A stretch of 64,000 nt of DNA from Candidatus Latescibacterota bacterium (GTDB lineage Bacteria > Latescibacterota > CBDEFO01): NCBI GenBank assembly GCA_965237525.1, contig CBDEFO010000008.1, positions 256,001 through 320,000 on the forward strand, read 5' to 3'. Below the pieces are notes generated by a model, which was not told where the DNA came from, did not search any database, and saw nothing but the letters and a program-made list of their open reading frames with translations. Position 1 is the first letter of the stretch. Each line of letters opens with the position of its first letter. The position numbers were made by a program, and so were the translations under genes. Positions 4,524-47,118 of this stretch are shown one piece after another.

Positions 4524-6116
4524 TCACAGACCCCCTAAAAACACCCTAGTGACTCCCCTTTCGGTCCCGAACCAGATGTATTCTCCATCGCGAAGGATCA
4601 CCTGCGCCGAGCGATGAGGCAGGCCCTCAGCTTCGGTGAATATCTCCCAGGTGTGGTATCTTCTGTCGAGACGAAAGACGCCCGATTGGGATGCTATCCA
4701 TACAAAGCCATCATCGGCACAGATATCCTTTATATCGCTGGAAGCTGCGCGCGGAGGGAAATATCTCCGCCAGTTGAGGGCGTCTCTATCCGCAGCAAGT
4801 ATAAAATAGCGTCCGTTCGCTACCACTCCTGTCCCGATTGAAGGAGCGGAAAGCTCCAGGGCATTTGTACCTTTGGCGATGCCTAATTCCACTGAGGTCT
4901 GTACAGGAAGAGCAGAAACCGCAAGCCATATCTCTCCTCTATCTATGACAATAGAGGTCACAGCGGCGTTATCGAGGAGTCTGTATGTGTCGGTTATTCT
5001 GGTCCACACAGAGTCGCCCCCGATTAAATCGGGGGTCGACTTTCCATCATCCTTTAGATATCTGTAGATCCCCTTTACCGTTCCGACCCATACGCTCTCA
5101 TCATCAACCTCCACATCATAGACGGCTCCTCGTTTTATCCCGTCGGGTCCAGCCTCTTCGATGATGCCGCTTGGACAGTGGAGGCGATCCAAGCCGTAGG
5201 CTGTCCCTATCCAAAGATATTCGTCGTCCAGGCATATGTCTATAACGCTATCGTCCGACAGCCCGTGGAAGGTAGTAAGGGTGTCCCAGCTATCCTTCTT
5301 CTTGTCGTACCTGGAAAGTCCGTTTATGGTTCCGAACCAGACGTATCTTTCTCCCACAGCGACAGATGTGACGTCGTTGGTGTTCAGACCGTCTATGTAT
5401 CTTGCCTCAAAATAGACCCATCCTTTTGTATTTTTATCGAATCTGCTTATGCCAGCAGATGCACCACTTGTAGAGGACGCTCCGCCGAACCAGATGGAGG
5501 AGCCGTCTGTTTCCATAGCTGAGACGTTATTTTCGATGGGTCCGAAGGGGAGCAGTTTTAACTCCAGAATCCTCAGATCCGCCACTCCTGTGCCGATACC
5601 CCACGTTCCAATCCAGAGATTTCCCCAGTCGTCTTGGATGCTCTCTGTTACAGAATACTTTCTAAAATAGGAATCGCGTATATATCCTTCGGGGTAGAAG
5701 AAATATCCTAAATCCATGATAAGCGAGGGGAGTTGGGGGCGTTCCTTCTTGCGGATCAGGCGACGCGCGAAGCCTCCCCCGTAGTTCCATAGATCCCCGG
5801 GGGGATACCATCTTGCAACTCCCCTTATGGTATCGAACCATATATCGCCGGAAGTAGGATCGAAGGCAACCCTTCTGACCCAGTTGTCAGGTAGGCCGTC
5901 GCTTGTAGTGATAGGGTCTTTCCACCCTTGTGTGTACATATCATAAATTCCGACGCCGCCAGTGGTGGCGATGTATGCAGTCGCCCCATCGAACGTTATA
6001 GATGTAACATAGCGCATATCCAGATAACTTGTCCATCGTTCTTTATCGCGTACGTCGGCCGAGGATGGATCAGCAAAGAAAGCGCAAAGATTTATAATAA
6101 TTATAAGCCTTTTCAT
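4524..6116 (-). CDS. Secreted beta-propeller protein (two-component-regulator-propeller-type repeats)
   Basis: Signal peptide; repeated 'GL.D..V..I..D...W.GT..G' blades. Confidence 0.8.
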   Translation of the reverse strand: MKRLIIIINLCAFFADPSSADVRDKERWTSYLDMRYVTSITFDGATAYIATTGGVGIYDMYTQGWKDPITTSDGLPDNWVRRVAFDPTSGDIWFDTIRGVARWYPPGDLWNYGGGFARRLIRKKERPQLPSLIMDLGYFFYPEGYIRDSYFRKYSVTESIQDDWGNLWIGTWGIGTGVADLRILELKLLPFGPIENNVSAMETDGSSIWFGGASSTSGASAGISRFDKNTKGWVYFEARYIDGLNTNDVTSVAVGERYVWFGTINGLSRYDKKKDSWDTLTTFHGLSDDSVIDICLDDEYLWIGTAYGLDRLHCPSGIIEEAGPDGIKRGAVYDVEVDDESVWVGTVKGIYRYLKDDGKSTPDLIGGDSVWTRITDTYRLLDNAAVTSIVIDRGEIWLAVSALPVQTSVELGIAKGTNALELSAPSIGTGVVANGRYFILAADRDALNWRRYFPPRAASSDIKDICADDGFVWIASQSGVFRLDRRYHTWEIFTEAEGLPHRSAQVILRDGEYIWFGTERGVTRVFLGGL

Positions 6117-21231: not shown

Positions 21232-22518
21232 TGTACTGCCCCCCAGGAAAGCGACACCAATTAAGCGACCTAGGGTAGTAGATAGAATTGTTTTCTCCAC
21301 TCTTCTGGGGTCTTATATCCCAGGGATGAATGAAGCCTGTTCTTGTTGTAATTATCGATCCACTGAGATATGATCTTCTCAGCCTGTTCAAAGGATTCAA
21401 ACTTGTGAAGCCAAACACACTCTTGCTTGAGGGTCCTGAAAAAACGCTCTACAACACCGTTCCAATCGGGCTTACCACTTGGTATGTATTCCTGACGAAT
21501 TCCCCAATATTCGGTACTCGCCAAATAGGCCCGAGCCAAAAAGATGGAACCATTGTCAGAGCGCAAAGTGAGACCCTGGGGGACAGCCTCTTTGGAGGTG
21601 TATCGAGAGATCACGGCCCGATCCAGGGCATCTGTGGCCTCCAGTGCCCTCCCTCTTCGACTAAAACGATACCCGGGGAACCTCCCGACTCCCGTTGTCC
21701 ACCACCGCAATAAGAGGACACCAACCATCTTTTCCACAATAGATCTTGGTCAAGTCAGCCGACCAGAGACTGTCAGGATGATCCATCACAGAACGCTTCT
21801 GGGCAACCTGTGGCCCCTTTCTCCCGGGGTCCCCGATTGATTCTATCGGGGACCCCACAGCTTACACTGCCACCCCTTAAGCTTCATTATCCTATGAACC
21901 TTCTTGATGTTGACATATGCCCCTTCCTTGAAACGAAGATGCGCCCAAACCCGCCTGTGACCAAATGCCTCTTCTTGGTCGAGTATCCCTCGAACACGAA
22001 AAGCAAGCTGTCCATCTATCATAGACTCTTCGACAGAAGAACTGACACCTCTATACCTAAGCCTATACAGAGTCGAACGATGCAAACCCAAAGCCAAAGC
22101 TACCACCTTACGGGAATAGCCTCGACCCAAAAACCGCCCACTCAAGGCAACCGCTTCGTTTTTTTTAGACGGGCTACCTCCTCGAGTATCTCCAACTGGA
22201 GGGTTAACTGCCCTACCTTACGCTCCAACCGGCTGACCTCCCGCTCCTTCGGATCCTTGCGACCACGCCGAGACTTCAGACTCTCCTGGCCTCCTTCCAG
22301 GAAACTATCACGCCAGGCATACGCCTGTGACTGGCTAATTCCATTCTTCCGACACACCTCTGATACATCCGCTCCTTTCAAAACAGCCAACACCACCTCT
22401 ACCTTACGGGTCGCCGTCCAGCGCTTACCATCTTTCACTTCGGGGCTTGACAATTTGACCTCCCTTCTCAAACCCCAATTTGCGAAATATTTGTCGCTCT
22501 GTCAAGGGGAACGGTATG
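21232..22518 (-). mobile_element. IS3-family element: orfA 22142..22471 and disrupted orfB 21270..22145
   Basis: HTH orfA; A-run slippery site before the orfA stop; rve core (WSADLT, RSDNGS, ERFFRTLKQE, HSSLGY); imperfect IRs containing GCGACA; two extra frameshifts in orfB. Confidence 0.85.
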
Positions 22519-23010
22519 TTACATCCTTAATTTCCCCTGTTTCTTAAACAATTTTTTCACTTTCTTTTTAACATGATCCCAGGTAGATCTCTCTTTCCAG
22601 CTTCCCCAACCATGATGAATTCCATACGAAACCCCATTGTTCAATATTTCCTCATATTCTTTGTCATTCCTCGGCGAGGGTGGATGAAAATACAGCCTTT
22701 CGGTTTCTTTAACATCATAATAATTATTCTTATAGTAAATCCTTGTAAGTAAGAGAGGGCCCGTAGCATCAACAACCTCAGTATAATTCCTATCAACAGG
22801 ATAGTTACTCTTTAAATCATCAATTACGTCTTTCCAGAACTGGTGCTTGGGAATTGAAGCAAAAACACAGTTCCCAATACCATCATAAGTGTCTCCAAAC
22901 TGCTTGCTTCTGTTTTTTGGTAATACTAAATTTGCTTCTTCGAAATCAAATCACTTTATCATCTCATAGTCAAGATCGAGATATAATCCCCCAATATCAT
23001 ACATTATTAA
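22519..23010 (-). pseudogene. 3' part of a DXD (GT32/OCH1-like) glycosyltransferase
   Basis: LIMYDIGGLYLDLD..., TGP and H.G.GSW motifs; internal TGA at 22951-22953; AT-rich. Confidence 0.8.
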
Positions 23011-24529
23011 AAGCCTTGTGAAATAGTTATGTCCCAGGCAGCGTCTGAAGCGCCGATTATGGGTCAAAGAGTAGCATATCGTATCGTTTTGCTGTGGAAT
23101 AAGCAAAATAGTCTTATCAGAGTTCTGGTCAGCAAGGAATAGGAGCTGTTTGAAGAACAGGATGCACTGTCTTTGACAGACAGGGCACACATAGGCGCTT
23201 TCCCCCTTCTTATGAAAGATACAAGCCTCTTGAGATTCTGTACTGTTGCAACAAGATTCAACTGTTCATTCAGTGAGGCTGGTCCTCTGTAACGGGCTCG
23301 TCCCATACCGTGTTGTTGCCTGGCTTCAGCAAAGATATGTTCACTGCGTTTACGGAGTCTCCGGGAGAGTTTGTAGTCAGCTGTTAATGAGATAGACCGT
23401 GCATGATTTCTGGCTTTCGCCTCTCGCACTTTTCTATCCCGTTCGGCCTGAATATGTGCTGAATTTGTCTTGTTTTTCCATGTAGGAATCGGTTCAATCT
23501 TCTCATCGGCTCGCAGAGGAATATGGGGTATGATTCCCCGGTCAAGTACATCAGCGATAAAATTACCAGAACCGTAACCGGTATCGGCACTAAGTGTCTG
23601 AATGTCTTTGGGCATGGTGTATGTTTCAAGGTCATCTACCATCTTAAGGGCACTTTCGGGCTCTGCTGTCCCTGTCGCCTGCGTGCCCTGAGTCTCAAGG
23701 ATTACTCTGCTTTTTGTGTCGATCAGATCATGGCCCATAAACGAGAGAAAAGCCCCTTTGCCCTTCGATTTGCTGTATAAGCGCGCGTCGGGGCCTGTAG
23801 TCGAACGGTGTGTTTGGTTCGTCCACTTTTCACCATGAAAGTCTTTATCCTGAGGATGCCCGGACCTACCCTTTGTCTTATCACCTTCAAAACCGATTCC
23901 CTTGAGATAATCATCAAGAGAAACAGGGGGTTCTATCGGCTCAATACTTTTCACTGAAGCATCAGCTTGTATCTGAGTGCCGTCGACACTAAGGTGTTTA
24001 CCGCTCACAACACCGACATCTATGCAACACTGGACTACCTGACGCATTATCCGTTCAAACAACCCACTGGATGCCCACTTGTGATTGCGAAGCTTGTTGA
24101 TCGTGCTCCTATCCGGAACCGCATCCTCAAATGTCTGATGACAAAACAACCGATATGCCGCATGCATCCCCACTTCCTGACAGAGCCGATTCTCACTCAA
24201 ATTATACAGATAGCCAATAAGGATCATTCGAACAACTAATTCAGGATCAATACCGGGTCTGCCATTGTCAGGGCAATAACAATCTGATACAACGTCTCGT
24301 ACAAATGAAAAATCAACTGCCTCATCAATCTGACGAAGGATATGATCCTCGGGAACTAAATCCTCCATCTGAAAATAGTGAAACATCGGATTTGTCTGTT
24401 CCTGCTTTTGTGGGGTCATTGTTTCCTCCATATATAATATTATCAATAACATAATACAATACATCGGAGCTGCTTTATCAATGCTTGTTCTATACTACTT
24501 TCTGAATCTAAGGGTTTTTCACAAGGCTT
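23011..24529 (-). mobile_element. IS1182-like insertion sequence, copy B (1519 bp; transposase 23064..24464)
   Basis: IRs AAGCCTTGTGAAA/TTTCACAAGGCTT; DUF772-like N-terminus (VPEDH.LR.ID, GRPGIDP) plus DDE residues (VDGT, ADTGY, SEHIF). Confidence 0.92.
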
Positions 24530-26210: not shown

Positions 26211-27729
26211 AAGCCTTGTGAAAAACCCTTAGATTCAGAAAGTAGTATAGAACAAGCATTGATAAAGCAGCTCCGATGTATTATATTATGTTATTGATAA
26301 TATTATACATGGAGGAAACAATGACCCCACAAAAGCAGGAACAGACAAATCCGATGTTTCACTATTTTCAGATGGAGGATTTAGTTCCCGAGGATCATAT
26401 CCTTCGTCAGATTGATGAGGCAGTTGATTTTTCATTTATACGAGACGTTGTATCAGATTGTTATTGCCCTGACAATGGCAGACCCGGTATTGATCCTGAA
26501 TTAGTTGTTCGAATGATCCTTATTGGCTATCTGTATAATTTGAGTGAGAATCGGCTCTGTCAGGAAGTGGGGATGCATGCGGCATATCGGTTGTTTTGTC
26601 ATCAGACATTTGATGATGCGGTTCCGGATAGGAGCACGATCAACAAGCTTCGCAATCACAAGTGGGCATCCAGTGGGTTGTTTGAACGGATAATGCGTCA
26701 GGTAGTCCAGTGTTGCATAGATGTCGGTCTTGTGAGCGGTAAACACCTTAGTGTCGACGGCACTCAGATACAAGCTGATGCTTCAGTGAAAAGTATTGAG
26801 CCGATAGAACCCCCTGTTTCTCTTGATGATTATCTCAAGGGAATCGGTTTTGAAGGTGATAAGACAAAGGGTAGGTCCGGGCATCCTCAGGATAAAGACT
26901 TTCATGGTGAAAAGTGGACGAACCAAACACACCGTTCGACTACAGACCCCGACGCGCGCTTATACAGCAAATCGAAGGGCAAAGGGGCTTTTCTCTCGTT
27001 TATGGGCCATGATCTGATCGACACAAAAAGCAGAGTAATCCTTGAGACTCAGGGCACGCAGGCGACAGGGACAGCAGAGCCCGAAAGTGCCCTTAAGATG
27101 GTAGATGACCTTGAAACATACACCATGCCCAAAGACATTCAGACACTTAGTGCCGATACCGGTTACGGTTCTGGTAATTTTATCGCTGATGTACTTGACC
27201 GGGGAATCATACCCCATATTCCTCTGCGAGCCGATGAGGAGATTGAACCGATTCCTACATGGAAAAACAAGACAAATCCAGCACATATTCAGGCCGAACG
27301 GGATAGAAAAGTGCGAGAGGCGAAAGCCAGAAATCATGCACGGTCTATCTCATTAACAGCTGACTACAAACTCTCCCGGAGACTCCGTAAACGCAGTGAA
27401 CATATCTTTGCTGAAGCCAGGCAACAACACGGTATGGGACGAGCCCGTTATAGAGGACCAGCCTCACTGAATGAACAGTTGAATCTTGTTGCAACAGCAC
27501 AGAATCTCAAGAGGCTTGTATCTTTCATAAGAAGGGGGAAAGCGTCTATGTGTGCCCTGCCTGTCAAAGACAGTGCATCCTGTTCTTCAAACAGCTCCTG
27601 TTCCTTGCTGACCAGAACTCTGATAAGACTATTTTGCTTATTCCACAGCAAAACGATACGATATGCTTCTCTTTGACCCATAATCGGCGCTTCAGACGCT
27701 GCCTGGGACATAACTATTTCACAAGGCTT
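26211..27729 (+). mobile_element. IS1182-like insertion sequence, copy C (1519 bp; transposase 26276..27676)
   Basis: Near-identical inverted copy of B, with TTAA on both sides. Confidence 0.92.
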
Positions 27730-31690: not shown

Positions 31691-32596
31691 TTATTTCCTC
31701 CCTCTTGGCGATTCCGAAATTCCCGCAATTCCTTCTCCCGAAACCGATCTATAGATTCCCCAGAGGACGATTATGCTACCTGCGATTCTGAGAGGCGTGG
31801 GAGTCTCATAAAGGATAAAATAGGCTAAAACAGCGGCTATGACAGGCTCGGCTAAGAGCGCTATAGATACATAGGAAGGAGAAATGCTCCCCAAAGCCCA
31901 GTTTATGGAGCTGTGGCCGATGATCTGCGGAACGAGGGCTAAAAGGAAAAGATAAAAGTACGTCTTTGGGGAATAACCCACGAATTCTTGACCGAAGATC
32001 AGGCATATAACTATTAAAAAGAGGGCGGCGGATGTGTAGGCTTTGAATATGTAGCTGTAAAGGCCGATTTTTTGCCTGAGCTTTCTGCCGATTAACAGAT
32101 AGCAGGACATGGCGACCGCGCCCAAAAGAGCGAGGATGTCCCCGATCAGCGACTCCGGACCCTTCTCCCAATCCCCAAAGCCGATTATGACGCTGCCTGC
32201 GACCGAGATCGCTATGCCGAAAGCCATTTTGCGGGATACTTTTTCCTTCAAAAAGAAATGGGAGGCGATACCCACAAAGATTGGGTTTGTAGTAACGAGG
32301 ACTACAGAGCTTGCCACGGTAGTGTAGCTTAGGGAGGTTATCCATAGGGAAAAATGGAAGGCAAGGCACAGGCCCGAAAGGACCGAAAGTAGAAGATCAC
32401 CTCTGCTCAGCTTCGTAGGATGTGCGCGTCTGTCCACAAGGACGAACGGCAAGAGCATAAGCGAGGCTAAAAAGAGGCGGTATGCGGCAATTATTAAAGG
32501 CGGAGCGTCGCACAGACGTATGAGAATAGAGGCAAAAGAGGCTGCTGTAATCCCTACAGACAGGACTATGTAAGGAGAAAAATTTAAGCTCTTGAC
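31691..32596 (-). CDS. DMT/EamA transporter; the codon after the RBS is GTC, so the start may be lost
   Basis: The frame is open 46 codons upstream of 32458 (SFASILIR...IAAYRL). GGAGGAGG precedes GTC at 32594-32596. Confidence 0.8.
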   Translation of the reverse strand, partial: VKSLNFSPYIVLSVGITAASFASILIRLCDAPPLIIAAYRLFLASLMLLPFVLVDRRAHPTKLSRGDLLLSVLSGLCLAFHFSLWITSLSYTTVASSVVLVTTNPIFVGIASHFFLKEKVSRKMAFGIAISVAGSVIIGFGDWEKGPESLIGDILALLGAVAMSCYLLIGRKLRQKIGLYSYIFKAYTSAALFLIVICLIFGQEFVGYSPKTYFYLFLLALVPQIIGHSSINWALGSISPSYVSIALLAEPVIAAVLAYFILYETPTPLRIAGSIIVLWGIYRSVSGEGIAGISESPRGRK

Positions 32597-32616
32597 GAAA
32601 TCCTCCTCCCAGTAAA

Positions 32617-32690
32617 TAGTAGGGGCGAACCCATGTGTTCGCCCGATTCATCCGCATTTTTGGGGCAACCATGTGGGTCTGTCCTAAGAA
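32617..32690. repeat. GTAG-type REP pair
   Basis: GTAGGGGCGAACCCATGTGTTCGCCC plus a degenerate inverted partner; related halves near 18627 and 46990. Confidence 0.7.
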
Positions 32691-32708
32691 TGTTTGCTGT
32701 CTACTGGT

Positions 32709-33701
32709 TTATCCTCTCGGATGATAAGTTCTGTGGACTTCCCTCAGATATTCTATATCGATGTGCGTGTATATCTGTGTGTTGGATATGTTGACGTGGC
32801 CGAGCATCTCCTGGATAACGCGCAGATCTGCTCCCCCTTCTAAAAGGTGCGTCGCAAAAGAGTGCCTTAAAGTATGAGGGCTGACTCTCTTGGCGATGTT
32901 GGTCATATCCACGTATTTTCGAAGTATCTTCCACATGCCCATCCTGGAGAGCGGTTTCCCTCTCCAATTGAGGAATAGAACGTCTCCGGATGCATCGGAG
33001 GCGATCTTTGATCTGGCACTATTCAAATAGATATCAATCCAGGCAATGGCTGCGCTTCCTATGGGGACTACGCGCTCTTTGGATCTCTTCCCGAAAACTC
33101 TCACCATTCCGATACGATGTTCGCCTTCTCCTTCAAGCGGATGTTCCGCATCCTCCAGGAGGAGGTCTCCCGTGTGGACGGATATGAGCTCCGAGACCCT
33201 GACACCCGTGGCATATAGGAACTCAAGACAGGCCCTGTCCCTTATGCCCATCGGGGTACTGGTATCGGGCCGATTTAAAAGGATGTCTATCTCGAGGGGA
33301 TTTAAGACGTCGGGAAGATGCCTTCCCAGTTTCGGGCTTTCCACATGTTCTGTGGGATCATCCGTGGATTTTCCTTCATTGAGGAGAAAGCGGTGGAACA
33401 TCCTTATTGAGGAGAGATTCCTTGAGATACTTGATGACTCCATTCCCCAATCACTCAAAAGGCGCAAGAGAGACGATATGTCCTCGCGACGCGCGTATTC
33501 AGGCGAACGGGCACCCCTGAAGGATAGGAATTCCAAATACCTTTCGATATCCTTCTTGTAGGCATAGACGGTGTTGCCTGACAGACCCTTTTCGACGGTT
33601 ATGTAGTCGAGAAATTGATCTAAAAGCTCCTTCGCCTCGGCGGAATACCTGCTGTGATCATCAGGACGTTCGCTTCGACTGTATGTCTCTAAATTTTGCA
33701 T
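32709..33701 (-). CDS. xerD: Tyrosine recombinase XerD
   Basis: VEKGLSGNT..AY..D, LYATGVRVSEL, SPHTLRHSFATHLLEGGADLR, YTH, HPR motifs. Confidence 0.93.
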   Translation of the reverse strand: MQNLETYSRSERPDDHSRYSAEAKELLDQFLDYITVEKGLSGNTVYAYKKDIERYLEFLSFRGARSPEYARREDISSLLRLLSDWGMESSSISRNLSSIRMFHRFLLNEGKSTDDPTEHVESPKLGRHLPDVLNPLEIDILLNRPDTSTPMGIRDRACLEFLYATGVRVSELISVHTGDLLLEDAEHPLEGEGEHRIGMVRVFGKRSKERVVPIGSAAIAWIDIYLNSARSKIASDASGDVLFLNWRGKPLSRMGMWKILRKYVDMTNIAKRVSPHTLRHSFATHLLEGGADLRVIQEMLGHVNISNTQIYTHIDIEYLREVHRTYHPRG

Positions 33702-33892
33702 TAAGTATCGGGTCAAAAATAGTAACCAGCATACAGGGGATCGCTTCGTGACTTTTCCCCTTTGCAACGACTGGGGGACGAAGCCAAACAATGTCATTGC
33801 GAGCGCCCCGACTAAGGATATCGGGGGGAAGCAAGCTCAAGGAATGGGAGGCGCTGCCCTACCTGCTGTCTACTGAACTACTGTCGACTAAT

Positions 33893-34393
33893 TTAGGATA
33901 TATCCAGTTGGGGAATTTCGAGCTTCAAAAGGGCGATTTTCCAGTCTGTTCCTGCCGAAAATCCACCCAAAGCGGTGTTCGCGGCTATAACCCTGTGGCA
34001 GGGAATTACTATAGGAATGGGATTTCTCCCAAGTGCCGCTCCCACTGCCCTGGAGGCTGCAGGTCTCTTTATTGCCTCTGCTATTTCACCGTAGGTTGCC
34101 ACCTTGCCGTAGGATATTGATGACGTTTCCATCCAGACTGCTTTTTGGAAATCAGTAAAGCCTGAGACATCCAGGGGAATTGAGAAATCCACTGGCTCTC
34201 CCCTGAAGTACTTTACCATCTGATCCTCGAATTCAATCAAATCGGGGCGGAAGTCGGAGGCTCGACCTCCCTTTCCAAGTATCCCTATTTCGCCGCTGGT
34301 TCTGCGGAACTCTCCTAACTTGACCCTCTTTAGCTTGCGGTCAGAAAATGCTATTCTCACGCTGCCGAACTGAGTCCTTAAAATTGCGGACAT
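33893..34393 (-). CDS. ogt: Methylated-DNA-protein-cysteine methyltransferase
   Basis: FQKAVW, TYGEIA, RAVG, IPCHRV motifs. Confidence 0.92.
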   Translation of the reverse strand: MSAILRTQFGSVRIAFSDRKLKRVKLGEFRRTSGEIGILGKGGRASDFRPDLIEFEDQMVKYFRGEPVDFSIPLDVSGFTDFQKAVWMETSSISYGKVATYGEIAEAIKRPAASRAVGAALGRNPIPIVIPCHRVIAANTALGGFSAGTDWKIALLKLEIPQLDIS

Positions 34394-34412
34394 TTTTTGA
34401 GCCCTGTGGATA

Positions 34413-35432
34413 CTACTTGATTCCAACGACCATCGAGTCCGGTCCGACAAGATGCTCGACGCGTGTTTGACGGAATCCAGCCTCGCGCATCCAGGAGGTG
34501 CAATCGGCTCCAGTGTAGTCGAATCCACCTGGTGTCTCAATGAGCATGTTCAGGCTCATAAGTAATCCGAACGCGTTCTGGTTGCGGTCGTCATCAATTA
34601 TAGCCTCGTGGATGATTAGCACGCCGCCTTTGGGCAGTGCATCGTACGCCTTGGCGATCAGCATGTGCTTCTCCTCCAGATTCCAGTCGTGCAAAATGTG
34701 TCCCATCACCAAAACGTCTGCTTCCGGCAGTGAGTCCTCGAAGAAGTCTCCCGGATAGAAGCGCAAGCGCCGGCTTAGCCCGAACGAATTCACGTAGTCC
34801 TCGAAGATGGGGCCCACGGACGGCAAGTCGAACCCACCTCCTGTGAGGTGACTGTGGCCAAGAGCGACTTGCACCGGCAGGCCACCTTGAGCCGTTCCGA
34901 TGTCAATGAACGTCTGATAATCGGCCCACGGGAATTTATTCGCGATCGCATTTGCCGCACCCATGCTGATGCCTGTCATGGCTTCAAGAAATCCCCGCAG
35001 CCCAGCAGGGTCACTGTAAAGTGCAGCAAATACGTCCTTCCCGTCTTTTGCCTCGTTCTGCGGTCGGCCGCTGCGAAGCGCTTCGGTCAGCGAGCCCCAG
35101 AAGCGATAGAGACGCGCGTTGGCCATCTCAAGCATGCCTCCAATATAGCGAGGTTTCTCCCGGTCCAGGAAAAGGTCTGTCTGGGGTGTATTGGCATACC
35201 GCCCGTCGCTTCGCTCCAGCATTCCCAAGGCGACGAGTGCATCGAAGAAATCCCGTGCGCTGCGCGGGTGGAGTCCAAGTTTCTCGGCAATTTCATCAAT
35301 ATCTGAGGGACCCTTGGCAAGCTCAGTGAACAGACCGATCTCAATCGCGCTCAGCAGGGTCTTCGAGCCCCAAAAACCGAGGCCAAGTTGCATGATTCTA
35401 TCAGGAGTGGGATCTTCATCATCTTTATCCAT
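34413..35432 (-). CDS. O-methyltransferase (ASMT/Methyltransf_2 family)
   Basis: Dimerisation N-terminus; [18 protein letters not shown] motifs. Confidence 0.9.
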
Positions 35433-35503
35433 AATCTTCCACCTATCTATTTAATTTTTGTATCTCTGTTGTCTTGAAGCTCTGTAAGCCTTAGTTTAGA
35501 AGT

Positions 35504-37330
35504 TCACACTCTCTTCTGCAAATGCTCTTTGATCGTCGAAGCAAGCTTTCTTCCTATACCTTGGATAGAGGCTATATCCTCCACATCGGCCTGGGAGATT
35601 CTGTTTACTGATCCGAATCTGTTGAGGAGCATCCGCTTTCTGGATTCGCCAACGCTCTCTATGTTATCCAGTTCGGAGGAGATCGTACGCTTTTGCCTCC
35701 TTTTGCGGTGGTATTCGAGCGCGAAGCGGTGCGCTTCATCCCTTATCGCTTGAAGGAATCTAAGAGACGAAGAGGTCTTGGGCAGAGTCTGAGCTTCTGA
35801 TACTCCCGGGACGAATACCTCTTCGAGCCTCTTGGCAAGACCAATTACGGGCTGTTCGGGCACGCCCACGTCCCTCAAAGTGGCGGCAGCACTTGAAAGC
35901 TGGCCCTTCCCTCCATCTATCAAGAGGAGATCCGGGAGTTCCGATCCCTCCTCCAGGAGACGTTTGAACCTCCTTTGTACGACCTCTCTTATCATTGCAA
36001 AGTCGTCGGGGCCTTCTGTCCTGGAAATCTTAAACCTTCTGTATTGGCCCTTTTGGGGTCTGCCGTCCCAGAAACTGACCAATGAGCCGACAGGGTCACT
36101 CCCCTGCACGTTGGATATGTCTATAGCCTCTATTCTCCTTGGCAGGCCTTCGAGCCTTAGATCTCGCTTTAAGGCTTCGACCGAATGAGGAACTCTGTCT
36201 TTGAGCTTTTCCCTCTTCAGCCTTCGCTCGGTCAGGAGGAGCCCGGCGTCCCTCTCTGCCATCTTTATGAGTTTGGCTTTGTCGCCTCGTTCGGGCACTT
36301 TGACAGTTACTTTGAACCCGGCAATGTTAGAGAGCCATAGAGAGATAGAATCCTGTTCTTCTATCTCCAGAGGAAGATGTATCTCTCTGGGCACGCTCGT
36401 TGAGGTGAGGTAGAACTGTCTGACAAATCCTGATACTATAACAGAGTGGGAGGAATCCAAAACTTTGTCCATAAAGTAGTGCTTTCTGCCGAGCATTTTT
36501 CCTGCTCTCACCTCCATAACAACCCCGCAGGCTTCGTCATCGTCCACACAGACCGCTATTATGTCCCAGTCATCTAAAGTAGCGGTCGCTACCTTCTGCC
36601 TATCAGCAAGGCTCTGGATGTCGGCAAGACGGTCCCGGTAGGAGGCGGCTTCCTCAAACCTCAAATTCTCAGAGGCTTCCTCCATCTTCTCTCTGAGATT
36701 CTCTATGATGCGGTCATTTCGGCCCTTCAGGAAGAGCACCACCTCCTCCATCATGCTCTGGTATTCTTCCCTGCTCACAAAGCCCTCGCAGGGTCCCCCA
36801 CAGCGTTTTATCTCGTACTCAAGACATACTCTGGTGATGCGAGGAGAAGGAAGCTGATCCTGGCATGTCCTTACAGGAAAAACGCGCCTTATTATCTCCA
36901 ACGTCCTGCGCATGGCGCTCACGTCGGTGTAGGGACCGAAATATTCGGCCTTGTCCTTTTTCATCTCTCTCACGACCAGAATGCGAGGATAGTCCTCGTT
37001 TGTGATTTTGATGAAGGGGTATTTTTTATCGTCTTTCAAGCTGATGTTATAGCGGGGCTTGTGTTCCTTGATAAGATTCGCCTCTAAGATCAGGGCCTCT
37101 AACTCGTTGTCCGTGATAATGTATTCGAAGTCAGCTATATTGGAGACAAGGGCCTTAAACTGTATCCTCCCGTCGTCTGCCGATTTCCCAAAATAGGACC
37201 TTACCCTGTTTCTTAAAGACTTGGCCTTGCCGACGTATATGAGCTGATCACCTCTGTCCTTCATCAAATAGACTCCGGGCTTTTGAGGCAGGCCTTCCAG
37301 TTTAAGGGCTATGTTTTCTCTATTATTCAT
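35504..37330 (-). CDS. uvrC: Excinuclease ABC subunit C
   Basis: GIY-YIG (PGVY..YVGKAKSLR), DISN, DGGKGQL, RDEAHRFA, HhH. Confidence 0.97.
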   Translation of the reverse strand: MNNRENIALKLEGLPQKPGVYLMKDRGDQLIYVGKAKSLRNRVRSYFGKSADDGRIQFKALVSNIADFEYIITDNELEALILEANLIKEHKPRYNISLKDDKKYPFIKITNEDYPRILVVREMKKDKAEYFGPYTDVSAMRRTLEIIRRVFPVRTCQDQLPSPRITRVCLEYEIKRCGGPCEGFVSREEYQSMMEEVVLFLKGRNDRIIENLREKMEEASENLRFEEAASYRDRLADIQSLADRQKVATATLDDWDIIAVCVDDDEACGVVMEVRAGKMLGRKHYFMDKVLDSSHSVIVSGFVRQFYLTSTSVPREIHLPLEIEEQDSISLWLSNIAGFKVTVKVPERGDKAKLIKMAERDAGLLLTERRLKREKLKDRVPHSVEALKRDLRLEGLPRRIEAIDISNVQGSDPVGSLVSFWDGRPQKGQYRRFKISRTEGPDDFAMIREVVQRRFKRLLEEGSELPDLLLIDGGKGQLSSAAATLRDVGVPEQPVIGLAKRLEEVFVPGVSEAQTLPKTSSSLRFLQAIRDEAHRFALEYHRKRRQKRTISSELDNIESVGESRKRMLLNRFGSVNRISQADVEDIASIQGIGRKLASTIKEHLQKRV

Positions 37331-37429
37331 TTATAAAAGTTTCACGGTCTCAATATAAAGCTCAATCGCATCGGTGATATTCTCCAGAGCCTCTTCGATT
37401 GTTTCACCCTGGGAGACACACCCTTTCAT
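37331..37429 (-). pseudogene. HicB-family antitoxin fragment (32 aa)
   Basis: MKGCVSQGETIEEALENITDAIELYIE; the N-terminal beta strands are missing. Confidence 0.7.
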
Positions 37430-38314
37430 TTATAGAAAATTCCTAAATTTTTCAGGAGTACTGTTTATCATTTTCAGAACTTTGGGGACCTCCTTGCTTC
37501 GTGCTTCGCCCGCGTCAGAATTGGGTGCGCGCACCGAAGGGTTATCTATGATGCCCTGCTAGTAGCGAATGTATTTGCAGACAGAGTAGGCATGAGGATC
37601 GAAGGTGCAGTAGTTCAAAAGAGGCAGGAGTTTGTTGTAGTACAGCTCACGAGCTTCGTCCCACCGTTTCTCCATCGCAAGCTCGTACAGCTTTACTTCG
37701 TCCTGAGGCACCAACGTAGCGCTTCCTGAGATGACGCCGTCAGAGCCCATCTCGTAGGCTATAAGGCTCATCAAGTCCCATCCACAAAGGAGGGGGATGT
37801 CCAGCAGTCTTTTAGCCTCGTAATTCTTGTCGGGAAGCCCGCTAATCTTTAGCGCAACTATGTTCTCACTTTTCTGAGACAGCGGCAGAATATCTTCTTC
37901 GATAGACAGCTCCCCCTGCTCACCCAGGTCGTAGAGCATCACCGGGATAGTATCGGCCAGCCTCAGGAAATAGGCGCTGATACCGCCTTCAACCGGGGGT
38001 CTGGACATCACGTAGTCCCCGCCTGCTTCTTTCGCATAGCGACCAAGTGTAAGGCCTTCTTCGAAGCCGGCGTCGATAATGCCGAAGCCGACCGGGACCC
38101 TGCCTCCGACATAGTTTACGACGACCTCCATTGTGCGCCGTCGCTCCTCCATCGAAAGCAATGAGAACTCGCCGATCTTTCCCATCTCCACAAGGCTGTT
38201 GGCCCCACCGTCGATAACGTGGTCGATCAGTCGGCAAATGCTCCTTTCGTCCACCTCACCCGAATCGGTGAACGGCGTCATAAGCAAGGTGTTAACCCCT
38301 GTAAGTCTTTTCAT
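37430..38314 (-). pseudogene. DHDPS/NAL-family aldolase with an in-frame TAG at 37559-37561
   Basis: TPF..GEVD, GEF..L..EER, MLYD, IVALK.S. Reading through the TAG gives QGIIDNPSVRAP... and 294 codons, a normal family length. Confidence 0.8.
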
Positions 38315-38382
38315 ATTCGGGCAATCCCTTAGCTATCTTGTCAGTCATTGATAAAGAGCCCCTTCCATCGAACACTTTCCGA

Positions 38383-41040
38383 TCACTTCCCTTCGATCTT
38401 CTTCTTCCATTCCTCTATTTTTATCAACGCTTGAAGGGGCGTTGTAGAGCTGATGTCTGTGTTCCTTATCTCGTCTATTACGGGATTTTCAGAAGAGCCG
38501 AAGAGGGTCATCTGAAGGTTGTCGGAGGGATGCGCCCTCCGTTTAGGCCCGGGTGTGTCTGAAATCTCGTGCGATGTTGAACCGTTCCCTTCCAGGTCGC
38601 TGAGGACCTCCTTTGCCCTATCCACTACTTCTTGAGGCATTCCGGCCAGGCGGGCGACATGGAGGCCGTAGCTGTGGTCACAGCCTCCAGAGACCATCTT
38701 GTGCAGGAATACGACATGATCTCCACTTTCGCTTACCGCTACGTTGTAGTTTTTGACCCTTTTAAGACGTTCTTCAAGTTCTACGAGTTCGTGATAGTGC
38801 GTCGCAAATAGCGTTCTGGGATTGGCTTTAGAGGAGTTGTGGAGGTGTTCCACCGTAGCCCAAGCTATACTCAGGCCGTCGAAGGTGCTGGTTCCTCTGC
38901 CGACCTCGTCGAGGAGAACGAGACTTTTAGACGTGGAGTTGTTGAGGATATTGGCGGCTTCGTTCATCTCCACTAAAAAGGTGCTTTCCCCCCTTGCCAG
39001 ATTATCGGATGCCCCGACCCTGGTGAATATCCTATCTACAACGCCGATCTTCGCCGATTTTGCAGGGACAAAGCTGCCCATCTGAGCCATCAAGACTATC
39101 AGGGCGACCTGACGGAGGACAGTGCTTTTCCCTGCCATATTTGGTCCCGTGATTATGAGTACCTGATCGCTGGAACCGCTTAAGTAGACATCGTTCGGGA
39201 CAAACTCGCCCTCCTTGATGATTCGTTCGACCACAGGATGCCTGCCGCCGGATATTTCTATTGTGTCTTTGTCGTCCACCTGGGGGCGGACGTAGTCGTA
39301 AGCCGAGGCTACTTCAGCAAGCGATGCAAGGACATCTATGTAGGCTACGGCTTTTGCGGCTGTCTGTATCTCCCGGACCCTTTCGGCCACCTGGCAGCGT
39401 ATATCCACAAAGAGGTTAAGTTCGAGCTCCTTTATCCGATCTTCGGCACCGAGTATCTTGGCCTCCCATTCCTTCAGTTCCGGCGTTATGAACCTGCTGG
39501 CGTTTACTAACGTCTGTTTGAGGATGTAGTCGTCGGGGACTCTATTCAGATTGGACTTGGTCACCTCTATGTAGTAGCCGAATACCTTGTTGTAGCCCAC
39601 CTTGAGGGAGGTTATTCCTGTCCTGCTCTTCTCTTTGGACTGGAGGACTGCTACCCAATCTCTGCCCTCAGAAGTTACGCCTCTCAGACCGTCGAGTTCC
39701 TCGTTGTAGCCGTCCTTTATTATATCACCCTCTGCGATAGAAAGGGGAGGTTCTTCCTCTATCGCGCGGTCGATGAGGTCTGCTACATCGCTTAAATCTA
39801 GGAGACCCGACTCCCTTGTGCGGCAGAGCATCTCCGATGTCTTGCCCTGAAGGACATCTTTGAGTTGGGGGAGTTTCTTGAGGGAATTTTTCAGTCCGAT
39901 CAGGTCTCTGGCATTGGCTCTGGCGCAGCACACCTTAGCTATAATCCTCTCTAAATCGCTGATCTCTTTCAGAACATCCGCTAGCTCCATCCTGCACTCA
40001 GAATCGTAAAATAGTTCCTCTACAGCGTCGAGTCTCTGCTCGATAGATTTAACTGAAGTAAGGGGGAGCAGGATCCAGTTCCTTAAGGTCCTTGCGCCCA
40101 TGGGGGTTTTAGTGCTATCCAAGACGTAAAGGAGCGACCCTTCGCGAGCACCTTCTCTCAGGGAGGATAAGAGTTCCAGGTTGCTCTGCGTGGACGGATC
40201 CAATATCATATAATCGGATGAGCGGTATCTGGATATGCGGTTGACGTGGGAAACATCGCTTTTCTGATTCTCCTTGAGATAGCCCAGAACTGCTCCGGCA
40301 GAGCAGATACCGATCTTTAGATCTTCGCAATCGAAGCCCTTTAGAGAAGCTACTTTGAAGTGGTCTAAAAGGGCCTCGTAGGCGGAGTCGTAGAGGAATG
40401 CCCAGTCATCGATCTTCGTCAGTAGAATCTTAGGAAAGAGATCTTCAAATTCGTCTTTGAATCGATCCACCCAGATTTCCGATGCGACGACTTCTGCGGG
40501 GCTTATCCTCTCTACCTCCTCCCAGAGCACCTCGTTGGGTACCTCCGCAACTCCAAAATCACCTGTGGAGAGATCTACTGTGGAGATTCCCGATCTTTGG
40601 GAGTCTGAGCACAGGGATAGGAGGAAATTGTTCTTACTGCCATCCAGGAGGTTCTCCGATAGGGCTGTGCCCGGAGAGACGATCTGGACGACCTCTCTTT
40701 TTACTATGCCTCCACCAGGTTTAGGGGGTTCCATCTGCTCGCATATAGCGACCTTCACACCCGCTTTGACCAGTTTGGCAAGGTATCCGTCTAAGGCATG
40801 ATGAGGCACACCTGACAAGGGCACATTATCGGACTTTCCGTGATTTCTGGAGGTTAAAGTCAGTCCCAGAAGCTTTGCCCCTATCTTGGCGTCCTCAAAG
40901 AACATCTCATAAAAATCGCCCATCCGAAAGAGGAGTATGGCGTCTTTGTGCTCCTTCTTCAGCTTGAGGTACTGCTCTATCATCGGGGTGATGCGACCAC
41001 TCCGTGTTGTCTGATATGACCTTGCCAACGACTTTTTCAC
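38383..41040 (-). CDS. mutS: DNA mismatch repair protein MutS
   Basis: TPMIEQY, GDFYEMF, GPNMAGKST, DEVGRGTST, FATHYHEL motifs. Confidence 0.98.
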   Translation of the reverse strand: MKKSLARSYQTTRSGRITPMIEQYLKLKKEHKDAILLFRMGDFYEMFFEDAKIGAKLLGLTLTSRNHGKSDNVPLSGVPHHALDGYLAKLVKAGVKVAICEQMEPPKPGGGIVKREVVQIVSPGTALSENLLDGSKNNFLLSLCSDSQRSGISTVDLSTGDFGVAEVPNEVLWEEVERISPAEVVASEIWVDRFKDEFEDLFPKILLTKIDDWAFLYDSAYEALLDHFKVASLKGFDCEDLKIGICSAGAVLGYLKENQKSDVSHVNRISRYRSSDYMILDPSTQSNLELLSSLREGAREGSLLYVLDSTKTPMGARTLRNWILLPLTSVKSIEQRLDAVEELFYDSECRMELADVLKEISDLERIIAKVCCARANARDLIGLKNSLKKLPQLKDVLQGKTSEMLCRTRESGLLDLSDVADLIDRAIEEEPPLSIAEGDIIKDGYNEELDGLRGVTSEGRDWVAVLQSKEKSRTGITSLKVGYNKVFGYYIEVTKSNLNRVPDDYILKQTLVNASRFITPELKEWEAKILGAEDRIKELELNLFVDIRCQVAERVREIQTAAKAVAYIDVLASLAEVASAYDYVRPQVDDKDTIEISGGRHPVVERIIKEGEFVPNDVYLSGSSDQVLIITGPNMAGKSTVLRQVALIVLMAQMGSFVPAKSAKIGVVDRIFTRVGASDNLARGESTFLVEMNEAANILNNSTSKSLVLLDEVGRGTSTFDGLSIAWATVEHLHNSSKANPRTLFATHYHELVELEERLKRVKNYNVAVSESGDHVVFLHKMVSGGCDHSYGLHVARLAGMPQEVVDRAKEVLSDLEGNGSTSHEISDTPGPKRRAHPSDNLQMTLFGSSENPVIDEIRNTDISSTTPLQALIKIEEWKKKIEGK

Positions 41041-41137
41041 TTAAGAAAAGCTTTCTAGTAAGGACCAATTGAAGTAAGATTGCTCCCCCCGATAGATTCA
41101 ATCGGGGACTCAGGGGATGGGAGGTGGTGGCCCCTGT

Positions 41138-42154
41138 CTACTGTCTACTGGTATTCACCACTATCGGACGTTCGTGAACCCATTCTATTGAGAGTAGGCT
41201 CTCGACCCACTTTTGGGCTTCCTCTTTCGTCTTATAGGGACCCATCCTGACTAAATATGCCGATTCATCCTCTATGGTCTTCATCTCCACGTAGACAGAT
41301 AGTCCCTTCTCTGAGAGTCTGTTGTACAGGCTCGTCGCGTTGGATGCGTTTTTGAACGCTCCTATCTGGACGGCAAAGTCTCCTTCAGAGCCTGAAGGCA
41401 CGCCTCCTTTTGCTGTAGCGATACCCGGGATGGAGGCAGCTTCATAGCTGTTGGGACACTCACGGGCAATCCTTTCGAGAGCCTTTGAGGCATCTTTCTC
41501 TCTCCCGATCTTTCTGTAGGATTGGACGAGGGTCCAGAGGATATGGCTCTTGAGGGTCTCTACGTCTTCTCTTTGGAGGAGTCTTTCGCCAAGCTCTACG
41601 ACTCTTTCGAAGTCTTCCTGCACAAAGTAAGAGTCCATAATTCCGGACCCGGCGAATATCCTCATTTTTGAGTCAGGATAAAGAGTTAACAGCCTTCCGA
41701 ACTCGGCTCTGGCTAATGCCCAGTCTTCGGTGGCCAGAAAGGTCATCCCGATTCGATACTGCGCCCTGTCGGCAAGCTCGCTTTTGGGGTACTCTTCGAG
41801 CAATCTTCTAAAGTGGCTGCGCGCTGTTATGTAGTAGGGTCCAGAATAGTAGGACTCAGCTATCTGAAAGAGGGCGTTGTCCGCTAACTCGTGCCCGGGA
41901 GCGACTTCCAACAAGCGCCTGAAGCGATCGTACGATAAGAGACCGTCGGTCTCTGTTCTGCCCAGATAGTATAGGGATTCGGGATCGTCGGGATGGCGGA
42001 TTAAATATTTTTCGAAAATCTCCCTGGACTTTTCATATTCCCCTGACTTGAAAAGGGACTTTGCCTCGTCTAAAGACACTTGACAAAAGGCAAGGTTATA
42101 TGTAAAAAGGCAGGAGCAGAGCGTTAAAATAGCGGTAATAATACGCGGTATCAT
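41138..42154 (-). CDS. TPR (BamD/CpoB-like) plus SPOR-domain periplasmic protein
   Basis: Signal peptide, YP.S..A..A TPR repeats, FAVQIGAF SPOR motif. Promoter TTGACA-17-TATCTT at 42204-42232. Confidence 0.85.
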   Translation of the reverse strand: MIPRIITAILTLCSCLFTYNLAFCQVSLDEAKSLFKSGEYEKSREIFEKYLIRHPDDPESLYYLGRTETDGLLSYDRFRRLLEVAPGHELADNALFQIAESYYSGPYYITARSHFRRLLEEYPKSELADRAQYRIGMTFLATEDWALARAEFGRLLTLYPDSKMRIFAGSGIMDSYFVQEDFERVVELGERLLQREDVETLKSHILWTLVQSYRKIGREKDASKALERIARECPNSYEAASIPGIATAKGGVPSGSEGDFAVQIGAFKNASNATSLYNRLSEKGLSVYVEMKTIEDESAYLVRMGPYKTKEEAQKWVESLLSIEWVHERPIVVNTSRQ

Positions 42155-42351
42155 AAGTCCTTTATCCTTCTGCCAAACGTCTGTATGCACCTTTGTCACA
42201 ATAAAGATACGTTACTCTCATCCATTTGTCAACAGTGACATTGTCATGGGATCTACAACCGTACGAAACAAGTGTAAAGTAAGTATATTGACAATTCCTT
42301 TAACCAATACAAAGACGGATAAATAGATGTCGTCAAGAAGATCTTCTGAGC

Positions 42352-43059
42352 TTAGGCTGGTACAGAATTCATGGCCTCGTACATCTCTTCTACTGTGACA
42401 AACTCCAAGCCCTTGTCCTGTGCAGATTCAATAATTTTCGGTAGAGCCGCAATAGTATTAGAACGATCTCTGCCACCATCATGTAACACAATGATAGAAC
42501 CATTCCTCATCAGCGAACGGACAGCCCATTCAATATACCAAGCTGGAACTCCATAAGGGTCTCGGGGGCAAATAGATCCCAAAACGAGTATATACCCTTT
42601 TTTGCGAGCAATTTCCATTAACATCGGCCCGAACCAGCCCTTGGCCGGACGCAGATAGAGAGGTTGGCTTCTTTGTTGAATCAACCCTTCTGTTTTATCC
42701 AGAGAATCTTCTACTTCAGTGCGGTCTCGTAAGACAACTCGTTTATCCTCATAGAAGTGATTAGCTATCTGATGACCCCTATCTCGAATCTCTGCGAAAA
42801 GTTCAGGATATTTCTCAGCCTCTTTACCAATGATGAAGAATGTGGCTCTAATATCATATTTATCCAGGATCTTCAGCACCTTTGGCGTATTTACAGGATG
42901 TGGACCATCGTCAAATGTTAAAGCTATGTAGGGCTTATCTGCGGTACCAAACCACATTACATCGGGTACTATTTTACTAACTACATTAACTATGGGAAAG
43001 GGTTCATATAAAGCAAGAACAATACAAAGAGAAGTAAAAATGACAGCATAAATCCACAT
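42352..43059 (-). CDS. Polysaccharide deacetylase (CE4)
   Basis: ALTFDDGP, ATFF, NH, LRP, IVLHDG motifs. Confidence 0.9.
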   Translation of the reverse strand: MWIYAVIFTSLCIVLALYEPFPIVNVVSKIVPDVMWFGTADKPYIALTFDDGPHPVNTPKVLKILDKYDIRATFFIIGKEAEKYPELFAEIRDRGHQIANHFYEDKRVVLRDRTEVEDSLDKTEGLIQQRSQPLYLRPAKGWFGPMLMEIARKKGYILVLGSICPRDPYGVPAWYIEWAVRSLMRNGSIIVLHDGGRDRSNTIAALPKIIESAQDKGLEFVTVEEMYEAMNSVPA

Positions 43060-43194
43060 AATTCGGATTGTTCTTCTCCTCAAAAAGTGCACGCTTAAGG
43101 AAAGGAAACTACGGACATTCCAGGTACTTCCCCTCGAATCTGTGCAAACCATGATATACCTGAAGGCTATGTTATGCGATTGAAATTATTTCAA

Positions 43195-44484: not shown

Positions 44485-44635
44485 GTAACTCTCCCGCAGC
44501 TTTAAATAACCCTCTGCCGTGATCACCGCCGGATAGACGGAGTTAGCAAAATCATAAAGGTCCCAGTCACACTATCCGCCTGGTTTTTCATTGTCACCTC
44601 CTACGGTAGAGGAATAACAGAGATCCCACTCAAGG

Positions 44636-45211: not shown

Positions 45212-45262
45212 GGATTCTCCGCGCTTTGGGACAGTGTTCTCTATGCTGGAAAATTGCCCCGT

Positions 45263-46491: not shown

Positions 46492-46588
46492 TGTGAGCTA
46501 CTTGGCATTACGCTTTCCACGAGGGGCTTGTAGCAGATAGGAATGGAAGGAGGTATCCCCATCTAATTTCAATCTGTTACGATCTGGT

Positions 46589-46879: not shown

Positions 46880-47118
46880 CGGCCACGCTGAAGAAGAGGA
46901 AGTTTAGGACCTTTGAATTCAGGCATAGACTTCCCCTTTACCCTTAGCTACTATATCTCACACGTCAGACAGGAATGTCTGACCCACCGGGTTCGCCCCT
47001 ACTTGTCTTTGCTTTCCCCCAGCTTATTGAAGTTAAGGAGATGGGAGGTGGTGCCCTGTCTACTGACTACCCCCGATTGAATCCCCGATTGAGTCTATCG
47101 GGGAGCGGGGGCTCCTGT

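Follow-up and report, generated by a model that had tools for sequence, protein, structure and literature searches.

Very small mobile palindromes are an already known kind of element, and among those nearest to the hairpin described here are the SDRs of cyanobacteria. As papers citing the original work describe them, SDRs are about 20 bp long, apparently mobile and devoid of an enzyme of their own, and SDR5 is cited as inserting precisely within the short palindromic HIP1 target (PMC4390886, PMC2884548). Our hairpin is likewise a dispersed unit of about 20 bp whose mobility is evidenced by empty sites. It differs from SDRs in sequence and hosts and in having two size classes of insertion, one with a 3-4-bp duplication and the other with loss of target bases, although the likeness may be closer than the citing papers convey. 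The starting point was a 64-kb stretch of a Latescibacterota genome, referred to below as the window. The source genome (4.58 Mb, 96.6% complete) was compared with a complete, single-contig sister genome of the same genus, of whose 4.54 Mb the comparisons cover 2.8 Mb.

REP sequences, REPINs and BIMEs, which are associated with RAYT proteins, are outlined in the literature as imperfect palindromes of 20-40 bp, present in hundreds of copies, mostly intergenic and in some cases in frame, with a mismatch in the stem (PMC3733652, PMC3116915, PMC3333891, PMC8266576). In size and number the hairpin (23 nt, 552 copies, mostly extragenic) resembles them. However, it has no GTAG/CGTC tag (of 309 contexts, 7 have GTAG as their left 4-mer and 16 have it as the reverse of the right one, and no 4-mer exceeds 20), it inserts into REP-like repeats, and the sister genome is a complete carrier without a RAYT. 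Whereas the doublet is the replicating unit of REPINs as presented in PMC3116915, it is a single hairpin that moves here: 35 filled/empty pairs differ by one hairpin of 15-27 bp.

Ssn nucleases of the GIY-YIG type act, as described in PMC11893778, on NTS/SRM repeats, small hairpins in hundreds of copies that are recognised in single-stranded form and cleaved within the variable flank, a few bases from the hairpin. This is the kind of cut that the mechanism preferred below would need, and SRM-like repeats are a favoured target of our hairpin. By inspection, the hairpin differs in lacking the HGTC head of the SRM. Rickettsia palindromic elements (RPEs) are palindromes tolerated in frame in unrelated genes and are given as about 150 bp long in PMC10969869; the present hairpin adds 5-11 residues and is also found in frame in unrelated intact genes whose homologues lack it. 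MITEs are similar in being non-autonomous, in their inverted ends and in the duplication seen in one insertion class (PMC10969869, PMC3184786). Their range is given as 50-500 bp (PMC10969869) against 23 nt here, and most of our insertions have no duplication: 7 of the 35 pairs gain 26-27 bp and 26 lose target bases. The ends of the IS families inspected in the window, IS5/IS1182-type and IS3, do not match the hairpin.

Literature searches by topic and by literal motif returned no description of the sequence, although the figures or supplements of REP catalogues could list it. The first-pass annotation had proposed an undescribed system. This is too strong a wording, since mobile palindromes such as SDRs, REPs and RPEs are a known kind. 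By analogy, the hairpin appears to work like SDRs and REP singlets and, within genes, like RPEs. The present analysis adds the geometry of insertion, with its two modes, and a homing-like switching of sites.

The hairpin unit and its copies

The element was defined from 309 unique non-nested contexts of the source genome and of 2.8 Mb of the sister genome as a 23-nt hairpin, Y-C-CCCGAT-TGANTCT-ATCGGG-G-R, with the outer pair being T-A in 146 contexts and C-G in 87. The 23-mer folds as an 8-bp DNA stem with a T.T mismatch and a GANTC centre above it; the mismatch is kept in 493 of 517 contexts. Allowing up to 3 mismatches from the consensus, the source genome contains 552 copies and none in each of five shuffled-consensus controls, which supplies the genome-wide count against a shuffled background proposed in the first pass. 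The exact form CCCCGAT-N7-ATCGGGG is found 268 times, compared with 0.15 expected per spacing from half-site counts, and its loop reads TGAATCT in 117 cases. The N3-spacer form has 20 copies in the source genome and other short spacings are nearly empty. The single-nucleotide spacer originally read between CCCCGAT and ATCGGGG has no match in the window; the real spacer is 7 nt.

Two stem pairs covary, 1/23 with 164 double changes (87 if independent) and 6/18 with 18 (1.2 if independent), these counts being inflated by copies of one subfamily; the other six of the eight pairs have no excess of double changes. Hairpin-templated mutation makes such compensatory pairs without selection. An Rfam scan of the 64-kb window gave no matches.

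Insertion polymorphism and other length evidence establish that the hairpin is mobile. It is best regarded as selfish DNA and occupies hundreds of sites with no relation to one another. Its description as a non-autonomous micro-element is supported by the genome-wide enrichment, by the empty alleles and by a search that found no mobilising enzyme. At about 739900-743150 of contig C8 of the source genome, three paralogous large genes are separated by tandem arrays whose 27-bp unit consists of CCTG and a 23-nt variant of the hairpin.

Copies in the window

Seven sites in the window had been listed as near-identical hairpins. A hairpin is indeed present at all seven, but they do not share one near-identical motif. 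The exact stem with the 7-nt spacer is found at 21831-21851, 41087-41107 (in the opposite orientation) and 47083-47103, the last being the inner copy of a nested pair. The first of these is the IS3 passenger discussed below. The 23-mer at 41086-41108 (minus strand) is intergenic, between mutS and a TPR/SPOR gene, and has no orthologous alignment in the compared part of the sister genome. The nested double noted at 47071 was confirmed: at 47070-47111 (plus strand) an older copy holds a younger one, 47082-47104, inside its TCTA, and the sister genome has the outer copy only, a net difference of +19.

The remaining copies are more or less diverged. The near-consensus copy at 61633-61655 (plus strand; 61634 in the original list) has one mismatch to the 19-nt core, and the degenerate one at 60447-60470 (plus strand; listed as 60448) has three. 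The copy at 33805-33827 (plus strand; listed as 33806), located in the loop of a GTCATTGCGAG...GAAGCAA repeat, is a diverged member missed by a search at 4 mismatches. All three are common to both genomes. The hairpin at 5017 is a sibling with a 3-nt loop. When contigs from 4 of 22 listed sequencing runs were compared with 32500-48500, they bridged the copies at 33806, 41087 and 47071 gaplessly, and there were no 15-27-bp deletions among the matches listed.

The window also includes two IS5/IS1182-type elements (DUF772 + DDE_Tnp_1) at 23064-24464 and 26276-27676, placed in opposite orientations around two small ORFs. The layout resembles a composite transposon, and k-mer counts give about 80 genome copies.

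A broken IS3 derivative carrying the hairpin

The hairpin at 21830-21852 (plus strand; 8-bp stem, T.T mismatch and GANTC centre) lies inside orfB of an IS3-family element, 21232-22519 on the minus strand. The element, assigned to IS3 by its Pfam HTH and rve domains, is a broken derivative carrying the hairpin as a passenger: orfA occupies 22142-22471, and orfB is split into 21843-22145 and 21270-21737. A premature stop had been attributed to the hairpin and a frame change had been noted to coincide with it, and both are borne out. The TAG at 21843-21845 (minus strand) comes from the element, as seen in the sequence and in comparison with the empty allele, and the net gain of 20 bp is a frameshift. 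At the left junction the AC of the target is replaced by GTC relative to the empty allele. On the other side, the copy reads CC at 21853-21854 (plus strand), in contrast to the TT of 15 other filled IS3 copies. This change, unique to the window's copy among filled IS3 copies, adds 4 bp to the stem, takes the DNA fold from -7.2 to -14.0 kcal/mol and is likely a hairpin-templated mutation. Since the outer 4 bp of the stem depend on it, the 31-bp span first given (21826-21856) exceeds the element.

Near-full IS3 copies number 50, with 14 in the source genome and 36 in the compared part of the sister genome. Aligning these paralogues for empty sites, as had been suggested, revealed 33 copies without the hairpin and 17 with it. 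An open orfB frame of 308-340 aa is present in 31 of the 33 empty copies while no filled copy keeps a frame longer than 199 aa, and therefore the empty allele is ancestral. All 17 filled copies, in both genomes, have the hairpin at the same site, 16 of them with the same junction and loop and one garbled; the orthologous position of the sister genome contains no IS3. The shared site and the lack of IS3 at that position mean that the hairpin arrived here within a transposing IS, rather than inserting after the IS had arrived as was first thought. The broken IS3 is presumably mobilised by intact copies in trans.

On the tree of IS3 copies the filled/empty label requires five changes, at least three of which are forced by well-supported branches. 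Sisters of which one is filled and the other empty have private variants in common to the left and to the right of the site, about 25 nt away in one pair. As the copies are mosaic along their entire length, gene conversion is the plain reading of this switching; the direction, gain or loss, is not established. The compared 2.8 Mb of the sister genome contain 25 identical empty IS3 copies and six near-identical filled ones. This suggests a recent burst of the intact IS3, with the broken derivative riding the same burst.

Empty sites and insertion geometry

Among copies with an alignable orthologue, 62 of 265 in the source genome were scored as empty in the sister genome and 35 of 221 in the reverse comparison, raw counts that include some degenerate copies. 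Such empty orthologous sites confirm mobility beyond the IS3 paralogues. A strict search of the 309 contexts left 35 non-nested filled/empty pairs. Their net gains were +15 (one pair), +18 (three), +19 (12), +20 (nine), +21 (two), +24 (one), +26 (one) and +27 (six), where several +20 rows represent the same repeat site and are not independent, and some of the "empty" alleles have diverged since insertion. None of the 35 pairs has a net of +23.

The pairs fall into two main classes, and these define the target and duplication that the first pass had left to be worked out: C^G sites without duplication in the short class and a 3-4-bp duplication in the long one. In the short class (26 of 35) the gain is 18-21 bp at ATC^G/C^GAT-like sites, with flank or target bases overwritten. 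Of the 12 targets with a net of +19, 9 have CG exactly in the centre (genome CG frequency 0.054) and 8 have an in-register ATCG or CGAT (background 0.009 per site), which are the junctions most common in the element itself. C^G is the place taken by the 19-nt core. Perfect targets (TCGA, ACGT) stay as they were, whereas in others the adjoining base or bases are rewritten as T..A or C..G; the targets TCGT, TCGC and CTGC were converted to CC..GG. The bases that replace those of the target beside the insert are often donor-like.

In the long class (7 of 35) the gain is 26-27 bp. Here the 23-mer is located between 3-4-bp repeats or, where the target differed, beside a foreign 4-mer (CAGG, CAAG, CCTG). 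Direct repeats of 4 bp abut the 23-mer in 18 of the 309 contexts (shuffled mean 2.3, maximum 8) and repeats of 3 bp in 34 (8.9 in shuffles); there are none of 5 bp. All 18 of the 4-bp duplications are YNNR, none with a central CG. A purine precedes 249 of the 309 copies and a pyrimidine follows 243. The metagenome contexts behave in the same manner, with a purine before in 32 of 39 and a pyrimidine after in 35 of 39, 4-bp duplications in 4 of 39 (0.7 expected) and a single pair, with TAAA, that gains 27 bp. Where copies are nested, the inner one takes the place of the TCTA/TAGA of the outer element and may have either orientation.

A rule by which target bases are micro-inverted (AC to GT) was considered and dropped because the TCGT, CTGC and TCGG pairs do not fit. 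Inverted extension by 1-3 flank bases is not above shuffles, and extension by 4-5 bases is slightly above them (10 vs 4.3 and 6 vs 1.8). Metagenome "pairs" with a net of 13-15 made up 17 of 18 rows (counting both strands) and came almost entirely from a single repeat family; they were left out, since what looks like their empty copy could belong to another subfamily. Along the 2.8 Mb of the sister genome, no clear switch of strand accompanied GC skew.

Target repeats and switching between filled and empty copies

The association with other repeats noticed in the window holds for the genome. A GTCATTGCGA/GAAGCAATC motif is found within 30 bp of 14.5% of 275 intergenic copies compared with 1.3% of random places, the CTGTCTA repeat is near 11.6% of them (1.5% of random intergenic places), and a piece of the element itself is near 32% (5% for random places). 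This corresponds to an 8- to 11-fold enrichment beside SRM-like and heptamer repeats and a 6-fold one beside element pieces.

One host repeat is filled at a single site in 37 of its 54 copies in the source genome and in 10 of 27 in the sister genome. Eight of the source rows have a one-to-one orthologue: five are filled/empty, three filled/filled and none empty/filled, the five being four loci, one of which is duplicated in the assembly. In all four of these orthologous copies, filled in the source genome and empty in the sister genome, the junction is identical. In two of the filled/empty pairs, variants private to the locus have persisted in both genomes at a distance of 8-16 nt from the junction, which means that the hairpin entered or left repeat copies already in place.

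At least five flank bases are matched on both sides with another locus in 63 of the 309 contexts, compared with 8-26 in 20 shuffles; target preference could produce such two-sided sharing.

Dead IS DNA is a sink for the hairpin. Decayed transposase relics, which we take to be IS1595-like, contain four to five hairpin copies each at 425081-425664 of contig C3, 404259-406107 of C6 and 767988-768671 of C8 of the source genome.

Hairpins within genes

ORFs of at least 200 aa make up 72.6% of the genome and contain 117 of 569 copies. Of these, 56 are deep inside ORFs, some of them in spurious antisense frames. Six of the 35 insertion events lie in reading frames that extend for 78 codons or more to either side, with net gains of 15, 18, 18, 21, 27 and 27 bp; a seventh open-frame event, with +20, is in the antisense frame of the dead IS3. 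Apart from that one, the nets in long open frames are divisible by three; on the mechanism preferred below, frame-keeping gains alone survive within genes. A contig C2 gene of the source genome, presumably ketoacyl-synthase-like, has a 9-residue insert missing from the orthologue in the sister genome, and in other phyla frames stay open through the hairpin in RelA/SpoT and LuxR-family genes.

The copy at 5017 had been presented as the same element lying in frame in a beta-propeller gene. The in-frame peptide is real: the gene (4524-6116) carries an 11-codon insertion at 5007-5039 on the minus strand. The hairpin inside it is not the same element, being a 19-nt member (5017-5035) of the sibling family with a 3-nt loop. 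A check of propeller homologues for an empty allele found the 11-residue insertion absent from all 39 that were aligned (the best 39 of 299), and in the sister genome the insertion is present and decayed. The 3-nt-loop sibling (window 5005-5040) often occurs within a longer ACRGAGTCGC...GGTCGA frame, and some of its copies hold a nested 23-mer.

Distribution across genomes

The sister genome contains 237 exact copies, and only one of 39 other relatives has a match, a single one. With a looser pattern there are 352 copies in the source genome and 312 in the sister genome, with at most 13 in each of the other 166 genomes of the phylum. Thus, among 168 genomes of the phylum the hairpin is expanded only in this genus.

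Outside the phylum the same sequence reappears sporadically. A broader sequence scan gave at least 56 loci; among the matches listed, 44 are from one Latescibacterota record and the other 12 are from Deltaproteobacteria/Thermodesulfobacteriota MAGs and one archaeal contig. The same 23-mer is present 19, 5, 6, 2 and 6 times in five Deltaproteobacteria-type genomes, and one or more letter-for-letter copies occur in 14 of the 96 genomes of a Deltaproteobacteria class. Metagenome contigs provide at least 120 loci in 39 distinct contexts, some at 59-69% GC. No matches were found in the viral contigs searched. On a contig labelled archaeal (L191, 301-321) the same hairpin lies in a transposase-like gene, which we assume to be IS256; this may reflect passenger transfer or misbinning. 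Within the source genome, a gene block at about 542000-555000 is present on both C2 and C4, inverted, and was counted once where noted; it is probably an assembly duplication.

Candidate enzymes and routes of movement

The explanation towards which we lean, while rating it just short of an even chance, is that a hairpin-specific nuclease frees a single-stranded copy together with donor flanks and that repair splices this copy into look-alike sites. A candidate hairpin-cutting enzyme would release a short single strand consisting of the hairpin and a few donor flank bases, and host repair would then patch it into sites resembling those flanks. Matches on either side of C^G would give about +19 without duplication, and one YNNR used on both sides would give +27 with a 4-bp duplication. 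Long matches, as between IS copies, repeat copies or copies of the element itself, would lead to homing-like refilling of the same site. We infer the single-stranded intermediate, the 2-4-base matches that set both junctions, and the enzyme.

Copying-in of this kind would account for the overwritten or foreign flank bases, the lack of +23, the nesting and the refilling of the same site. It fits less well with the sharp modes at 19 and 27 and with insertions that match by 1-3 bases: many insertions into unique DNA match their junctions by only that much, too few for ordinary recombination. The two modes and the rule of a purine before and a pyrimidine after look more like the geometry of an enzyme cut than like repair. 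Two-sided flank sharing and duplications could equally result from target preference combined with a staggered cut, and ordinary gene conversion may account for the changes between filled and empty states in IS and repeat copies.

In line with the first reading of the window, no mobilising enzyme was found; none of the families tested is present in all carriers, although absence is weak evidence in carriers other than the sister genome, these being incomplete MAGs. A GIY-YIG gene flanked by the hairpin, which was one of the leads, was not found. The small GIY-YIG gene of the source genome (C4, about 479830-480200; a 107-aa frame) has inverted GTCATTCCCG...CGGGAATC flanks, the Ssn/SRM layout as it is described in PMC11893778, and these SRM-like flanks are without the hairpin; this gene is not in the sister genome, which like G041 has UvrC-sized matches alone. 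Several carriers show nothing beyond such a match: G041, G043, G044, G045 and G262 have one each, again UvrC-sized. Matches to the four-helix IVP were found in four of five genomes and not in the source genome, to PDDEXK_3 in one of five, to DUF559 in three of five and to IS110 in one of five. An IVP (four-helix-bundle) gene with an internal TGA is located at 2579539-2579850 of the sister genome, in the region orthologous to the window. ORFs bracketed by two hairpin copies, read by eye, are ordinary genes or IS scraps.

A rather unlikely alternative is that an HUH (Y1) enzyme of the RAYT/TnpA type excises the hairpin from single-stranded DNA at a dinucleotide as a circle of about 27 nt, which is pasted at a matching tetranucleotide in the way proposed for REP/BIME, so that the hairpin would parasitise the REP machinery of the host. 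TnpA-REP, as summarised in PMC3333891 and PMC8266576, needs a mismatched hairpin, and its cut falls at a dinucleotide on the 5' or the 3' side of that hairpin. The kept T.T mismatch and the purine/pyrimidine junction rule agree with this, and a 27-nt circle is consistent with those +27 insertions that have a foreign 4-mer. The source genome has an intact-looking RAYT-like gene of 176 aa with an HMH/HIH motif (L200, 1441-1968; C8, 1476118-1476645), and a hairpin is found about 70 bp downstream of this frame. The gene scores 60.7 bits, under the NF047646 cut-off of 80, and its region is unaligned in the sister genome. It lies between GTAG-type palindromes, and the single hairpin, on one side only, is nested in one of these repeats, so that a RAYT flanked by the motif, another of the original leads, was not recovered. 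PF01797 was not detected in either of two genomes; NF047646 was detected in four of five and was missing in the sister genome, where only a 29-residue scrap of RAYT is present and yet there are 237 exact copies. In the Deltaproteobacteria class NF047646 matches 70 of 96 genomes; these include all 14 carriers but also 56 of the 82 non-carriers. Furthermore, neither GTAG nor any other 5' tag is fixed (20 of 309 contexts share the most frequent left 4-mer), and precise pasting leaves the loss or overwriting of target bases in 26 of 35 events unexplained.

We consider it improbable that the 23-mer is joined into a cut at R^YNNR^Y, staggered by 4 bases and made by a type II topoisomerase or by an integrase- or DDE-like enzyme, with fill-in giving +27 and trimming giving +19. 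The modes are symmetric about 23 (+4 and -4), all 18 duplications are YNNR, and a very high-copy IS5/IS1182-type transposase is present in the genome. Nevertheless, independent filling or trimming predicts +23 as the commonest net, which is seen in none of the 35 pairs, the ends of the IS5/IS1182-type elements (TAAAAGCCTTGTGAAA) are unlike the hairpin, and foreign flank bases are left unexplained. Arms of 8 bp are also likely too short for a transpososome.

More improbable still is spread without any dedicated protein, for which a stable hairpin would need only gene conversion and template switching during replication. It would agree with the fact that Y1, GIY-YIG, reverse transcriptase, four-helix IVP, PDDEXK_3, DUF559 and IS110 are each absent from some carrier, with the hairpin-extending double change in the window's copy and with the lack of a recurring neighbour gene around the 39 metagenome contexts, which were read by eye. 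However, the stem and loop are identical letter for letter across phyla and are expanded in one genus among 168 relatives, which argues for sequence-specific recognition by a lineage-limited factor.

Transcription of the hairpin followed by its reverse transcription into new sites has an even smaller chance of being correct. Variable junctions are typical of target-primed reverse transcription, and two reverse transcriptase matches are present in the sister genome, but none was found in the source genome (96.6% complete), which has new insertions of its own. The idea of a selected signal (a protein-binding or uptake site, or a terminator) that arose by point mutation and does not move can practically be dismissed: the copies are mostly intergenic and each contains GANTC, yet 15-27-bp length polymorphisms, gene-breaking insertions and self-nesting speak against it and the empty alleles contradict it.

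Returning to the preferred splicing of a released strand into look-alike sites, its broadest form seems to us possible but doubtful. According to it, selfish hairpins of 19-27 nt cross phyla by homing-like, microhomology-guided copying-in, with no need for a linked transposase. A putative enzyme, either a housekeeping one or one acting in trans, would recognise the hairpin, and whether a +19 replacement or a +27 duplication results would depend on the register of two matches of 2-4 bases.

Implications

The spread of palindromes of 20-40 bp such as SDRs, CGTC-REPs and RPEs, which carry no gene for it, calls for an explanation; CGTC repeats, as they are presented in PMC3733652, seem to be without a dedicated transposase. 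The present family offers dozens of clean comparisons of sites before and after insertion. Together with the target motif, the two classes of junction and the replicate found in another phylum, these data suffice to design oligonucleotide assays and to score candidate enzymes. The hairpin also kills transposases, as in IS3, and adds short loops to enzymes. If homing-like copying-in is true, such hairpins would be among the smallest bacterial replicators and a source of new protein loops.
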